From IMG/VR virus record IMGVR_UViG_3300029913_000001: a stretch of DNA of 64,000 nucleotides, one strand, 5' to 3'. Within the stretch, counting starts at the first letter, position 1. Each line of letters opens with the position of its first letter. The notes beneath the pieces were generated by a model. That model did not search any database and had not been told where the DNA came from. It saw only the letters and a list, made by a program, of their open reading frames with translations. This DNA is from a virus. Taxonomy: Duplodnaviria; Caudoviricetes. Below are positions 51,910 through 56,170 of the stretch, piece after piece. Position numbers and translations under genes: made by a program.

Positions 51910-52527
51910 ATGAAAATTACCGAATTATATCGACCAAAACTCGGAAAAAATTTAGAAGCCCCGGCATTTGATTATTTTAAAAAGAGCCACAAAACATCAG
52001 ACTATGACTATGAGAAGCGACAAGACCTTCAACAAGAGTTGAGAGATAAATTAAAATCCCTCGGGTGGAAACATTTAAATTCCGGAGTCTATAGTTCAGT
52101 GTTTTCAAATCCAACAAAATCTTTTGTACTTAAAATTAATAAGCGCCCAGATCCCGGCTATCAACGATACGTTAATATTGTTAAATCTCATCGAAATAAA
52201 CATTTTCCAATTATAAGCGATATTAAAAAGATGGAAATAGCCGGTAATATCTATTATGTTTATTTAATTGAAAAATTAATATCCATTCCAGCTAAAATGG
52301 CATTTAATTATGAACGCTGGTTCGACTCTATTATAACAAAACCCGGTATTCCATTGGAAAAATTATTTTGGAATAATGTTCCAATTATATTTAAAAAACA
52401 ACCAGGATTATTGAAAGCACTTCAAATAGTAGAACAATCGGCTATCTCGGAAAGCATTGACCTACACAGTAAAAACATGATGAAAAGGGCCGATGGCACT
52501 ATTATTATTACTGATCCATATGTTTAG
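51910..52527 (+). CDS. Protein-kinase-like protein (T7 gp0.7-like), paralogue 1
   Basis: SGVYSSVF glycine-loop-like segment, VLKI, IEKL, DLHSKN catalytic loop, ITDP. Confidence 0.8.
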   Translation: MKITELYRPKLGKNLEAPAFDYFKKSHKTSDYDYEKRQDLQQELRDKLKSLGWKHLNSGVYSSVFSNPTKSFVLKINKRPDPGYQRYVNIVKSHRNKHFPIISDIKKMEIAGNIYYVYLIEKLISIPAKMAFNYERWFDSIITKPGIPLEKLFWNNVPIIFKKQPGLLKALQIVEQSAISESIDLHSKNMMKRADGTIIITDPYV

Positions 52528-53048
52528 ATTGCATTTCCAATATTAATTATTTCTAAAGACTTCGGAATGTCCCGTACTAGATAAATACACGGCGGTCGAT
52601 AACCGCCACACAACGGAATACAGAGTAACTGGCCCGGAACGGTCTTAGGCACAAACCACTTTGTTGTCTGATAAACATCTTCAACATCCACAGACAAATA
52701 ATCCGCAGTAAATGAACTCATTGGATTTAAAGAAAATGCGCTAAATCCCCTGCCACTTATACTGGTAACCGGATTAATTTCTAAATCGCCGTGAGTAGAT
52801 TCCCCAATCAAAATCTGATGATCTGCAGGAACATTAAGAAAATATGTTTCCTTCTTTCGGCCCAACGATAAATCAAAGCGTAATTTAAGAGTTGCCGCAT
52901 AGAATGACTCTAACATAATTAATGGTTGACAATAATAATCCGCTTCTTCTTTCTTAACCGAATTTTGATAAACCCAAAAGTGAATATCAGCTTGCTCTGG
53001 AATAAGATTTAAATCTACAGCAATATTATTTTCGTCTAAAATATACAA
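52524..53048 (-). CDS. Conserved hypothetical protein
   Basis: ORF track; RBS present; lies between the two kinase genes. Confidence 0.75.
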   Translation of the reverse strand: MYILDENNIAVDLNLIPEQADIHFWVYQNSVKKEEADYYCQPLIMLESFYAATLKLRFDLSLGRKKETYFLNVPADHQILIGESTHGDLEINPVTSISGRGFSAFSLNPMSSFTADYLSVDVEDVYQTTKWFVPKTVPGQLLCIPLCGGYRPPCIYLVRDIPKSLEIINIGNAI

Positions 53049-53088: not shown

Positions 53089-53709
53089 ATGCTTATTACT
53101 GAATTCGCGCCAAATAAATTACGCCCCGCTATTGTCGCTCCAACCTACGATTATTTTACTTCGATTCCGCGGTGGAATGATGTAGATTATAATACCAAAA
53201 AAGCGGACGCCAACAAAAAGTTACGAGACTCATTGAAAAGAAATGGCTGGACATATCTCGACGAAGGCTATTATAGTATGGTTTTTGCCAATCCTAAAAA
53301 GTCATTTGTTCTAAAAATTAACAGCAAACCCGATACCGGGTATGAAAGATATGTTTCTGTTATTAAAAAACATAAAAATAAGCATTTTCCAATAATTAGC
53401 GATATGAAAATTGTGAAGATTGACGATCAAAATTATTACATTTATCTCATTGAAAAATTAACTAAACTACCAGCTCTTCAGGCTTTGAGCAATTCAGATT
53501 TTTTCGCTATAATAATACGGCGGGCATATAGCTCATTAGACGTTATATTTAACCACGATATACCTACAATTTTTAAAACCGATCCATCTTTAGTTAGAGC
53601 CCTACGTATTGTAGGTCAGTGTGCAGATGATTGCGGCCTTGATATGCACAGCGGAAATATCATGCAACGAACAAATGGGACTATTGTTATTACCGATCCA
53701 TATTCTTAA
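53089..53709 (+). CDS. Protein-kinase-like protein (T7 gp0.7-like), paralogue 2
   Basis: EGYYSMVF, VLKI, IEKL, DMHSGNIM, ITDP; TATAAATA at 53073-53080. Confidence 0.82.
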   Translation: MLITEFAPNKLRPAIVAPTYDYFTSIPRWNDVDYNTKKADANKKLRDSLKRNGWTYLDEGYYSMVFANPKKSFVLKINSKPDTGYERYVSVIKKHKNKHFPIISDMKIVKIDDQNYYIYLIEKLTKLPALQALSNSDFFAIIIRRAYSSLDVIFNHDIPTIFKTDPSLVRALRIVGQCADDCGLDMHSGNIMQRTNGTIVITDPYS

Positions 53710-53710
53710 A

Positions 53711-55141
53711 TTATTTTTGCCACTCAATCTTCTCAATCTTAAAGGGAAATAACTGTTCCTTATAATATTTTTTCCGAGAGGTAAGGTGATTTTTTGAAAA
53801 TTTGCATGTACTAGTAATATCCCATATCTGCGCAAAATTTTTATCTTTTGCGATACGTATCGCCCGGCCAACGCTCTGAATTGTACGAACGAAACTCTTT
53901 CCCACCTCAATTAAAAATAAATGATTAATTCTAGGAATATCTAGGCCGACCGCAGCAATTCCTGATGTAGCAATAATAACTTTATCATCAGAAGTAGCCA
54001 CTAAATCATATTGCTCTTTACGCAATGTTGAATTTGAAGCACCTGATAAGAAAATTGACCCAGGTATTAATTCTTCTAACAATACTCCTGATTTCTTTCT
54101 ACCAACCAATACAAGAACATTGCCGGTTTTCGCCGCATCTGTAATTAACGTAGAGATGAACTCAATTCTATCCGGATCGGTGACTAGATAAGTTAACTCG
54201 GCAGGATAATCATTAAATGACATTGTATCAATTAATTGTAATATCTTCACATCACATTTGCTGATTAATCCCTTATCCTGTAGTGTGGCGGTAGTTAACC
54301 GATGCAAAACTTCTCCCATTGAAATAGTAAGATTTACTAAATCAAAATCTTCCTTTGGTATAGTTCCTGTAAATGCCCATCGAATTGGAATTTTATTTAA
54401 TACTGTATCGCAAAGTATCGATTTAAGAATATTTCCTTTCAGGCCGTGACATTCATCCACAATTACTGCAACAACGCCTTGTACAAATTTTTCAAATGTA
54501 ATCGGCTCTGGTAATCCAATATCGATCGGAGAATCTTTTAATCTTGACAAACTTTGCCAGGTGCAAATCGTATGAGTCTTAAAAAAATCTTTTCGATCGC
54601 CATAATAAACACCCACGTCCATGCCAAGGTCGATATAATATTTTTCTGTCTGTGTAATCAGATCTTTATTAGGAACAATGACAATACTTCGACCATATTT
54701 TTCAACTTTTTTAGACAAAACCGCCGTCAAAAGACTATTATGATGGATGATTCCTATATGATCCACATAGACATGCGGAGATGGCAAGGTTACGTCATAA
54801 AAATCTTGCTCCGGAACCGACTCAATTTTGTCAATACGTAAAATTCCAGTTCTAGTTCGAATAATATCTCCCGCCACTAATGCGCTCGCATGTATCGGTA
54901 AATAAAATTTATTATACAAAATATGTTTATCTGCACATATTAAGTGCGATTTATCAAACGTTAATTTAACTCCCTCGCTTTGCTTTTTAATAATATATTG
55001 AATTGGAACATATTCATCGGATGGGCTTTTAATTCTGACCGTTAATTCATCCACCGATAACTCTTCATTATAAATTAATGAAGAATTTTTATACGATTGC
55101 ATTGCTGACAATAAGGTGCCAATTTTCATCGACAATTTCAT
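53711..55141 (-). CDS. uvsW: UvsW helicase C-fragment fused to IntC of a split intein (intein part 54737-55141)
   Basis: 135-aa IntC with CADKH (block B), FYDVTL (block F) and HHN|S (block G), followed by SF2 motifs VDECH, FTGT, GLDIP and QSVGR. Own AGGAG RBS. Confidence 0.9.
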   Translation of the reverse strand: MKLSMKIGTLLSAMQSYKNSSLIYNEELSVDELTVRIKSPSDEYVPIQYIIKKQSEGVKLTFDKSHLICADKHILYNKFYLPIHASALVAGDIIRTRTGILRIDKIESVPEQDFYDVTLPSPHVYVDHIGIIHHNSLLTAVLSKKVEKYGRSIVIVPNKDLITQTEKYYIDLGMDVGVYYGDRKDFFKTHTICTWQSLSRLKDSPIDIGLPEPITFEKFVQGVVAVIVDECHGLKGNILKSILCDTVLNKIPIRWAFTGTIPKEDFDLVNLTISMGEVLHRLTTATLQDKGLISKCDVKILQLIDTMSFNDYPAELTYLVTDPDRIEFISTLITDAAKTGNVLVLVGRKKSGVLLEELIPGSIFLSGASNSTLRKEQYDLVATSDDKVIIATSGIAAVGLDIPRINHLFLIEVGKSFVRTIQSVGRAIRIAKDKNFAQIWDITSTCKFSKNHLTSRKKYYKEQLFPFKIEKIEWQK

Positions 55142-55482
55142 ATAACTCCTGTAATTGTTCTACTGTATAATCTGATCGTGGTCCTTTTGAATGATTTTCT
55201 TTAGCTGAAATTACTCTTAAATTTATATATGACCCTATTATTTCGGGTGGGATCGAAAACATAAATCCGTGATGTCTTGAAAATATATGATCTACATGAT
55301 TATCGTTGTATGATATTTTTAAATTCTCGGGATTCACGGTATCATAAAAATAAGTTAATGATTGTGCGGTAAACCTTACTTCCTAAATAATCTACTAGAT
55401 CCCAGCAATCAATATTATTTCTTCGACAAATATTCAGCCAAATTTTCTCACTATATTTTTTAATTAATTCGCTAATTTCCAT
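55089..55482 (-). pseudogene. HNH-like homing endonuclease, frameshifted near 55383
   Basis: MEISEL...DYL, then a +1 shift giving EVRFTAQSL...HVDHIFS...GF...IPPEIIG...NLRVISAKENHSK. Confidence 0.7.
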
Positions 55483-55512
55483 ATCTTCCTGCTCCTGTTG
55501 GTAATAATGCTA

Positions 55513-56079
55513 TTAAGCAGGATTAATAAAATTTAATAAATATTTGCCAAAATCAGAATTTTCATCAATTTCAATATCGAGCAGGGTATCAAAATCTAAA
55601 CATTTCCCGGAACTCGTTGGTAATTGGGAAATTCCTTGTAAATTTTGTAAGAAAATATTAATTGCGGTAGTCTGATGATCTCTTAAAATGACCGTCTCGC
55701 CTGCCATTTGATGCTCTTTCGGCCATACTTGTCCAGCGAAAAAATTATTATCAATAGGATCAAATTGAAAATCACGATTATATGTTCGTTTATCTTCAAT
55801 TTCAACATCATATCCTTTATATATCAGATATTCAAGTTGCTTCGGTAGCAAATTAACAAACGTTTTCCCGCCCATAGTAAAAAAGGCTTGCTTACCATCA
55901 AAGCGTCCCATTCGTACGGCAGGAATCCAACGATTTGCTGGATTAAAAATCTTGCTTTTTTCGTATAAATATTTTCTAATTTCTGGAGGCAATCCAATAA
56001 AGGTGCATTCCACCTCATTATGAATTTGCAAAATGCAATGTTTATTTTCTGCTGTCATGTTATTAATTATAACATTCAT
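55513..56079 (-). CDS. uvsW: UvsW helicase N-fragment fused to a 29-aa IntN (55516-55602)
   Basis: LRDHQ, LPTSSGK|CLDFDT... then TAA TAG; TTGACA-17-TATAAT promoter upstream. The true start may be MTAENK. Confidence 0.9.
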   Translation of the reverse strand: MNVIINNMTAENKHCILQIHNEVECTFIGLPPEIRKYLYEKSKIFNPANRWIPAVRMGRFDGKQAFFTMGGKTFVNLLPKQLEYLIYKGYDVEIEDKRTYNRDFQFDPIDNNFFAGQVWPKEHQMAGETVILRDHQTTAINIFLQNLQGISQLPTSSGKCLDFDTLLDIEIDENSDFGKYLLNFINPA

Positions 56080-56139
56080 GTACTACTATGTCAAGACGTT
56101 ATACATAGAGGTGGGCGGCTCACAAAATATTAAGAAAGT

Positions 56140-56170
56140 AAAATGCCAGTGATTAACTCACTGGCATTTT
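56140..56170. terminator. Intrinsic terminator
   Basis: AAAATGCCAGTGA / TCACTGGCATTTT. Confidence 0.8.

Follow-up and report, generated by a model that had tools for sequence, protein, structure and literature searches.

Atypically split inteins, whose N-terminal fragment (IntN) is 15-37 amino acids (aa) long, are already known and used, and their natural breaks fall either right after strand β2 (S1: VidaL, PolB16) or after helix α1 (S2: AceL-TerL, GOS-TerL) (PMC13014065). Among the fractured genes of Dassa 2009, GOS-TerL, a terminase whose C part has 122 aa, is the one oddity; all other breaks in that set are canonical, the endonucleases are GIY-YIG or Vsr-like, and the hosts named are gp41 helicase, IMPDH, DnaE, NrdA, NrdJ, DNA ligase and terminase (PMC2677866). 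Insertion into a P-loop is likewise a known intein preference (PMC4760082). Here we describe a locus at positions 53,711-56,079 of a 64,000-nucleotide (nt) stretch of the virus record IMGVR_UViG_3300029913_000001 (Caudoviricetes), hereafter the window. A UvsW-like helicase gene lies there in two pieces, the first (N-gene) ending in a putative IntN of 29 aa and the second (C-gene) beginning with a putative C-terminal intein fragment (IntC) of 135 aa.

We put a probability of about 0.86 on the reading that this UvsW-like superfamily 2 (SF2) helicase gene of an uncultured peat jumbo phage is a fractured gene with a trans-splicing split intein. The N-gene product resembles the N-terminal third of unsplit UvsW-like SF2 helicases until the similarity ends at ...LPTSSGK, and the first 135 residues of the C-gene product, which end in IIHHN, are without counterpart in unsplit helicases. 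When aligned to the unsplit helicase of Xanthomonas phage XbC2 (P0001), which reads ...STSSGK|TLITAAMSKSVEKYGRS at the break site, the two pieces met exactly at the Walker A GK|S/T. The sequence-only reading of this DNA had proposed a naturally split class-1 intein at the Walker A motif of a UvsW-like SF2 helicase, and junction, residues and homology agree with that proposal. Its open reading frames (ORFs), stops, AGGAG ribosome-binding site and fragment lengths were confirmed to the nucleotide, and its description of a short IntN, with block B in the C fragment, stands.

An intein-less allele was found in run X15 (2025, freshwater). A 1177-nt contig (depth 9.4), about 98% identical to the window on both sides of the gap, omits 54722-55615 and has 28 other nt instead. 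The net loss of 866 nt is exactly the distance from Cys1 (55602) to Asn135 (54737), and the allele encodes ...QLPTSSGK-SILTAVLSKK. The intein boundaries are thereby set with single-nucleotide precision, and the protein predicted from splicing is the one that occurs naturally. The nearest unsplit homologue (P0122; 85% identical, 492 aa) reads LPTGSGK-SILTAVLSKK, so that both it and the intein-less allele show the GK-S junction that trans-splicing had been expected to rebuild. The same run also holds a 196-nt contig bearing IntC (depth 3.1); filled and empty alleles therefore coexist in that sample.

Of the 28 flanking nt in the X15 allele, 13 differ from the window, versus 1-3% elsewhere. The changes are synonymous except one (Leu to Ile), and three are serine switches between AGY and TCN codons that need at least two substitutions. 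We take this divergence to stem from co-conversion with a diverged donor or from immunity of the target site, and mobility would follow in both cases. Among the extein homologues, 104 of the 118 closest in the matches listed (after the window's own) are unsplit and intein-less, and three further ones besides P0006 begin with IntC. Such sporadic occurrence is what a mobile element gives.

The six split and 12 contiguous helicase inteins of the clade were aligned, with residues numbered on the window's IntN and IntC joined. C1, E56, K82, A99, H102, Y144, D145, G159, H162, H163 and N164 are invariant, the window has all of them, and the six natural breaks all lie within one variable loop. The class-1 features are present, namely Cys1 directly after GK, the invariant His73 of IntC, Y115-D116 and H133-H134-N135|S136, with S or T at the +1 position within the clade. 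The model of a contiguous member (P0027) is a HINT domain with a predicted local distance difference test (pLDDT) value of 96.3. Foldseek gave it 59 PDB matches at E<=0.001, of which the 50 listed are all inteins or intein-like BIL (HINT) domains, the best being VidaL (6vgv; E 8e-9, TMt 0.81). Searched against PDB sequences, the clade profile matched VidaL at 8.8e-14, gp41-1 at 2e-12 and CatC, an engineered consensus atypically split intein (PDB 6dsl), at 3e-6.

In the P0027 model, β1/β2 occupy residues 2-12, a clade-specific helix 17-26, the loop that holds the break 27-31, β3 32-36 and α1 37-48. The FGKF motif of the helix at 17-26 corresponds to SDFGKYLLNF in the window, and the window's equivalent of α1, TLLSAMQSY, lies in IntC. 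Because α1 is on the IntC side, the modelled break is of S1 type, in a variant that keeps an extra helix on IntN, and the S2 position of AceL-TerL and GOS-TerL was ruled out. The likeness to AceL-TerL put forward in the sequence-only reading therefore gives way to VidaL, the closest known intein. That reading had also treated block B, CxxxH instead of TxxH, as an oddity. The canonical Thr position is Ala70, with the Cys one position upstream. The Ala at -3 and the His of block B are invariant in 18 of 18 clade members, and VidaL reads CAFNH and gp41-1 CSEEH. As the Ala never varies within the clade and VidaL has it too, (C)AxxH is normal here and block B is not anomalous.

Compared with the described systems, the window is like VidaL (16-aa IntN, S1) in its Cys1 nucleophile, a CAxxH block B, a break after β2 and before β3/α1, and an IntC that carries blocks B, F and G. 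It differs in sequence (~22% identity), in its +1 Ser and in its IntN of 29 aa, which is longer because the clade-specific amphipathic helix is kept after β2. AceL-TerL, GOS-TerL and the consensus "Cat" (S2, IntN 25-37 aa) share the short IntN, the long IntC and the phage origin, whereas their break is after α1 (PMC13014065), their host is a terminase and their profile likeness is weaker (CatC 3e-6). The second-best profile match, gp41-1 (PDB 6qaz), also has a CSxxH block B and comes from a fractured phage helicase gene, but it is canonically split (88 + 37 aa) and its helicase is of DnaB type. The DnaB-b, MCM-a and RFC-a inteins (Novikova 2015, PMC4760082) are, like this one, in the Walker A P-loop of replication ATPases; unlike it they are contiguous inteins of other lineages, often with LAGLIDADG domains.

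The gene order is that of the fractured genes of Dassa 2009 (PMC2677866): on one strand, the N part is followed by a short spacer, then by the endonuclease gene and then by the C part, as in the window. Their hosts are also phage DNA-metabolism genes, and the overlap of the endonuclease 3' end onto IntC, 6-69 bp there, is 53 nt here. The window differs in that its endonuclease is HNH-like and decayed, and a UvsW-type helicase is not among the hosts named (PMC2677866). In the literature searched, no paper joined "split intein" and UvsW. The arrangement as such is thus a known one. New here are the host gene, the HNH-like and decayed endonuclease, the extra helix at an S1-type break, and the unusual completeness of the comparative series.

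Several results bear on function, and their limits count against trans-splicing. Between lineages, the ratio of nonsynonymous to synonymous substitution rates (dN/dS) was 0.2-0.5 for IntN, 0.2-0.47 for IntC and 0.04-0.3 for the exteins, values that are rough because synonymous sites are saturated. A model of the complex of IntC (residues 1-145) with the N-gene product (150-188) reached an ipSAE of 0.72 in three runs, against 0.01 for the best control and a mark that 51 of 78 solved complexes and 2 of 108 mismatched pairs reach; since split inteins are among the structures already solved, the model may draw on memory of them, and the score measures likeness and not binding. Metatranscriptome contigs follow the DNA colinearly through the stops, the junction of IntC and extein, and the start of the C-gene, although contigs from RNA libraries could be carried-over DNA. 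Compared with its two nearest split relatives (L005, L009), the window's IntN lacks the last 5 residues at the C-terminus. The match to the Pfam model Intein_splicing (PF14890) has an E of 0.083 and 13 bits against a cut-off of 35.8 bits. Of the alignments to intein models that the sequence-only reading had called for, the Pfam one thus fell short and that of the clade profile to VidaL succeeded; the low PF14890 score is a sensitivity limit of the Pfam model, as the clade profile reaches solved inteins at 1e-13. Protein splicing itself, and the order of events proposed below, are what we infer from the sequence.

In the modelled complex, the interface comprises GK, Cys1 to residue 14 and one helix face (F177, Y180, L181, F184 and I185 of P0003) on the IntN side, and residues 1-17, 33-38, 67-74, 112-116 and 125-133 of IntC. 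Charge complementarity of the halves was also considered, and no claim is made from it, as IntN has a net charge of -6 in the window but about -2 in L009. The halves bind in the model, and the chemistry is something we infer; a two-piece helicase could also work with the intein halves holding its fragments together non-covalently, or with the fragments acting unlinked. Fractured genes without inteins do function (cited in PMC2677866), and unlinked fragments reportedly suffice in the HNH-fractured NrdA of phage Aeh1. In this locus, however, the break splits the P-loop at GK[ST], parting the Lys from the Ser/Thr, and a folded 164-aa domain remaining there would disrupt ATP binding. The splicing residues, moreover, do not vary across 18 clade members, some of them from lineages that parted with the endonuclease long ago. 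We therefore leave only a small chance to a helicase that works in two pieces.

The split pairs keep intact catalytic residues in lineages that have no endonuclease gene, which also bears on whether the locus is a pseudogene in which endonuclease insertion killed both intein and helicase. The endonuclease gene itself is decayed in the window, and an intein-less allele occurs in nature, as such decay would have it. Both long ORFs are intact nonetheless, dN/dS is below 1 for both halves and both exteins, and the split and the catalytic residues persist in six diverged lineages, of which two have no endonuclease gene at all. A consensus promoter stands before the N-gene and a ribosome-binding site before the C-gene. 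A decaying gene is accordingly improbable, and trans-splicing of the two halves is preferred.

The stop codons themselves are real. An ENA contig (L013, 92 kb) and a Logan contig (L014) both match all 2369 bp of the locus at 100% identity, and contigs of run X9, whose sample was not flagged as a possible source of the window, span 53711-55285 and 55330-56079 with zero differences, stops included. All sampled words of the locus were present in at least 8 peat-metagenome runs. As the independent assemblies and runs agree over the locus (at the level of contigs), and the same architecture occurs in five other lineages, the chance that an assembly or sequencing artefact made the stops is negligible. 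The N-protein is present on 7 contigs of up to 293 kb, which makes the carrier a jumbo phage. Megablast of the locus and of the surrounding 24 kb against the phage collection gave no close DNA match; the best protein matches are helicases of jumbo phages, e.g. Sinorhizobium phage Phosso (51%).

Group I introns occur in T4-like and jumbo phages, and the gap could in principle be an intron, or a segment bypassed in translation, so that a contiguous precursor is made after all. An Rfam scan of 54900-55700 found no intron and no family at E <0.5, only a chance snoRNA match (E 0.53). The endonuclease ORF extends 53 nt into IntC in every lineage, relatives without an endonuclease gene still show a stop and a restart, and the RNA contigs are without a joint, one of them spanning the stops unchanged. 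Repair at the level of RNA or translation is thus very improbable, more so than either a pseudogene or an unspliced two-piece helicase.

The gap of ~370 bp between the two genes had been measured correctly but is not empty, as it holds a broken endonuclease gene. A spacer of ~30 nt separates the N-gene end from the first of two short ORFs, which are in different frames. The frame of the second, 82-aa ORF is open from 55382 and has 53-58% identity to the last ~95 residues of intact endonucleases, with all invariant H/D/H/N residues of the motif kept. By blastn, the window (in gene coordinates) matches the relative L009 up to 710 (L009 5690) and again from 722 (L009 6440), so that ~0.74 kb has been lost and the remnants no longer share a frame. 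Depending on the frame, AAGGTTTAC is translated as K-V-Y or as (V)-R-F; both agree with the intact protein, and short repeats therefore probably flanked the deletion. A one-base frameshift as the sole cause of the break was ruled out, since ~0.74 kb is also gone relative to the intact relatives.

The endonuclease matched PHROG 1035 "endonuclease VII" at 1.8e-5 and the Pfam HNH model only weakly (E 0.2), and Pfam and NCBIfam gave no significant match. An AlphaFold model of the domain, built from 4 sequences, had a pLDDT of 68, and Foldseek found no PDB match for it. From the motif and the one PHROG match, the enzyme appears HNH-like. The last 53 nt of the 82-aa ORF (55337..55089) overlap the start of IntC and bear its ribosome-binding site; the retained 3' end survives because that site lies there, which fits the model of Dassa 2009 (PMC2677866).

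A further element, CCRACAGGAGMWGGA, is conserved before the endonuclease start (window 55484-55519, minus strand; L009:5555-5580; L005:2725-2748). Out of frame it reads P-T-G-A/D-G, i.e. Walker A, and it also contains a GGAG ribosome-binding site. In L005 the element reads H-I-P-T-G-A-G-V-C, compared with H-Q-V-P-T-G-A-G-K-C at the resident site, and the differences are mostly at third codon positions. The element may be a relic of coding sequence or a mimic of the homing site, or it may serve as a ribosome-binding site alone.

Relatives were found by searches with the IntC region and the IntN region, and their contigs keep the order N-gene, endonuclease gene, C-gene. Two groups (L004-L007 and L009-L012) have an IntN of 34 aa and the same 53-nt overlap onto IntC; the endonuclease has 371 aa and is intact in the first group, and has 376 aa in the second, where it is intact in L009. 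On the contig of a third lineage (L008) the N-gene is outside and only the endonuclease 3' end is present. Two lineages have no endonuclease gene: L017, with an IntN of 27 aa and a 26-nt spacer, and L015, with an IntN of 30 aa, from a TAG-recoded phage in which the N- and C-genes overlap by 11 nt (L015:703-2635; the phage reads TAG as Gln). Among more distant IntC-first helicases, L019 has an IntN of 28 aa and a Vsr-like endonuclease (weak Vsr/DUF559 matches). That gene (motif FDGNYWHH) overlaps both intein halves at the same break point (L019:2010-4940), and as it is HNH-like elsewhere, two unrelated endonuclease families use one loop. IntN lengths over the five other split lineages are 27-34 aa.

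An exhaustive HMMER search with IntC gave 109 clusters (50% identity) at E<=0.001. The IntC-like domain begins at ORF residue 1 in ~80 of these, which implies a split, and is internal in ~29. Most clusters end the domain in HHN|T/S and continue into the post-Walker-A sequence of several ATPase types, the hosts being UvsW-like helicases, clamp-loader/RFC-like, RecA/UvsX-like and DnaB-like proteins and AAA+ ATPases. Twelve clusters are contiguous mini-inteins of 151-170 aa at the same GK|C...HN|T site of UvsW-like helicases. The statement that few short-IntN inteins are known thus holds for the characterised ones but not overall. A scan of the window with the hidden Markov model of the clade found no second intein of the same clade. 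As a separate observation, P0023, P0045, P0063, P0064 and P0097, and P0065, P0084 and P0117, are contiguous clade inteins in the Walker A of clamp-loader/RFC-like and RecA/UvsX-like proteins, and dozens of IntC-first ORFs run on into other ATPases.

The window helicase has significant Pfam matches to ResIII and Helicase_C; the UvsW_N domain gave a faint or weak match only, on relatives. Phage homologues at 45-47% identity, the closest among the matches listed, include some annotated UvsW. In the Escherichia phage ph0011 the helicase gene is near genes annotated RecA and UvsY, and a RecA-like gene is also found in XbC2. The annotated 859-aa helicase of ph0011 (P0002; L003:1573-4152) itself holds an intein of ~365 aa at the same GK|T site, with Ala as its first residue and two LAGLIDADG-like motifs; this is a different intein lineage from that of the window. 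Mutants of T4 uvsW are viable, and the description of the helicase as essential was an assumption.

The coordinates of the features are collected in Table 1. The sigma-70-type consensus is matched at 12 of 12 positions and overlies the ATG at 56079, and the gene call of P0120 (181 aa) begins at M8. For these reasons the N-gene probably starts at 56058 (M8), giving 181 aa, and its transcript is possibly leaderless. A 13-bp terminator-like hairpin (56140-56170, minus strand) closes the gene upstream of the N-gene. On the other side, directly downstream of the helicase C-gene, two paralogous plus-strand genes of ~205 aa (51910-52527 and 53089-53709) with faint T7-kinase-like Pfam matches stand on either side of a 174-aa minus-strand gene (52524-53048).

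Table 1. Features of the split helicase locus, in window coordinates.
Feature	Position	Strand	Remarks
Sigma-70-type promoter consensus (TTGACA, 17 nt, TATAAT, with TG) before N-gene	56066..56094	minus	Consensus match only
N-gene: UvsW-like N-terminal domain and Walker A to GK (N-extein), fused to IntN	56079..55513	minus	Longest ORF 188 aa; PHROG DNA helicase matches
Cys1 codon TGT	55602-55600	minus	Directly after GK
IntN, 29 codons	55602..55516	minus	Cys1, strands β1/β2 (CLDFDTLLDIEID), amphipathic helix with clade motif sDFGKY
Tandem stops closing N-gene	TAA 55515-13, TAG 55512-10	minus	Unchanged in independent assemblies and metatranscriptome contig
Spacer before endonuclease remnant, with its ribosome-binding site and element CCRACAGGAGMWGGA	55483..55509	minus	
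5' endonuclease-gene remnant, 46-aa ORF	55482..55342	minus	Homologous to residues 1-40 of intact 371/376-aa relatives
3' endonuclease-gene remnant, other frame; 82-aa ORF from GTG 55337	55089..55382	minus	Nuclease domain, HxDH...N...N motif
AGGAG ribosome-binding site of C-gene	55146..55150	minus	Within endonuclease remnant, four bases 5' of ATG
C-gene, 476-aa ORF	55141..53711	minus	
IntC, 135 codons	55141..54737	minus	β3/α1; block B C69 A70 D71 K72 H73; block F Y115 D116; block G H133 H134 N135
Ser+1	54736-54734	minus	Helicase core then aligns from Ser136
C-extein: Ser+1 and SF2 helicase core (ResIII, Helicase_C), 341 aa	53711..54736	minus	

The following history would account for the locus. 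An ancestral contiguous mini-intein would have been seated at the Walker A GK|S/T, and a free-standing homing-endonuclease gene would then have inserted in its β2-β3 loop, giving the upstream part a stop and the downstream part a ribosome-binding site and an ATG. Two polypeptides would result, the N-extein with the 29-aa IntN and the 135-aa IntC with the C-extein. IntN would dock on a largely pre-formed IntC via its β1/β2 hairpin and amphipathic helix, and the reconstituted HINT domain would follow the class-1 pathway, i.e. N-S acyl shift at Cys1, transesterification to Ser+1, cyclisation of Asn135 and an O-N shift, to yield a helicase of ~493 aa with its P-loop intact. The endonuclease gene has by now lost ~0.74 kb and its reading frame, after which the element would no longer be self-mobile while the split persists.

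A larger reading is tentative, and we hold it rather doubtful. The intein of the window may be one representative of a very large and for the most part uncharacterised clade of phage inteins that target Walker A (GK|T/S), with the β2-β3 loop, and not the canonical site, as the natural place of endonuclease entry and break, and with a clade-specific docking helix on IntN. The P-T-G-A-G element ahead of the HNH-like endonuclease gene would copy or mimic the enzyme's Walker-A homing site, whether as an autoregulatory operator like that of I-TevI or as a scar of invasion; P-loops lacking an intein would then be the targets of "collaborative" homing by endonuclease and intein.

To our knowledge, only a handful of natural short-IntN split inteins have been characterised (AceL-TerL, GOS-TerL, VidaL and PolB16), and they are highly valued in protein semisynthesis, as their N fragment is open to chemical synthesis. 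To these the locus contributes a relative of the fast VidaL intein with Cys1 and Ser+1; its five natural homologous pairs (IntN 27-34 aa) and dozen contiguous cousins can be used for comparison or for designing a consensus. The relatives show most stages of the endonuclease life cycle: the empty site, the contiguous mini-intein, the split intein with an intact HNH-like or Vsr-like gene, that with a decayed gene, as in the window, and that with none. Since the standard Pfam intein model misses the clade, fractured genes of this kind will be annotated as truncated helicases.

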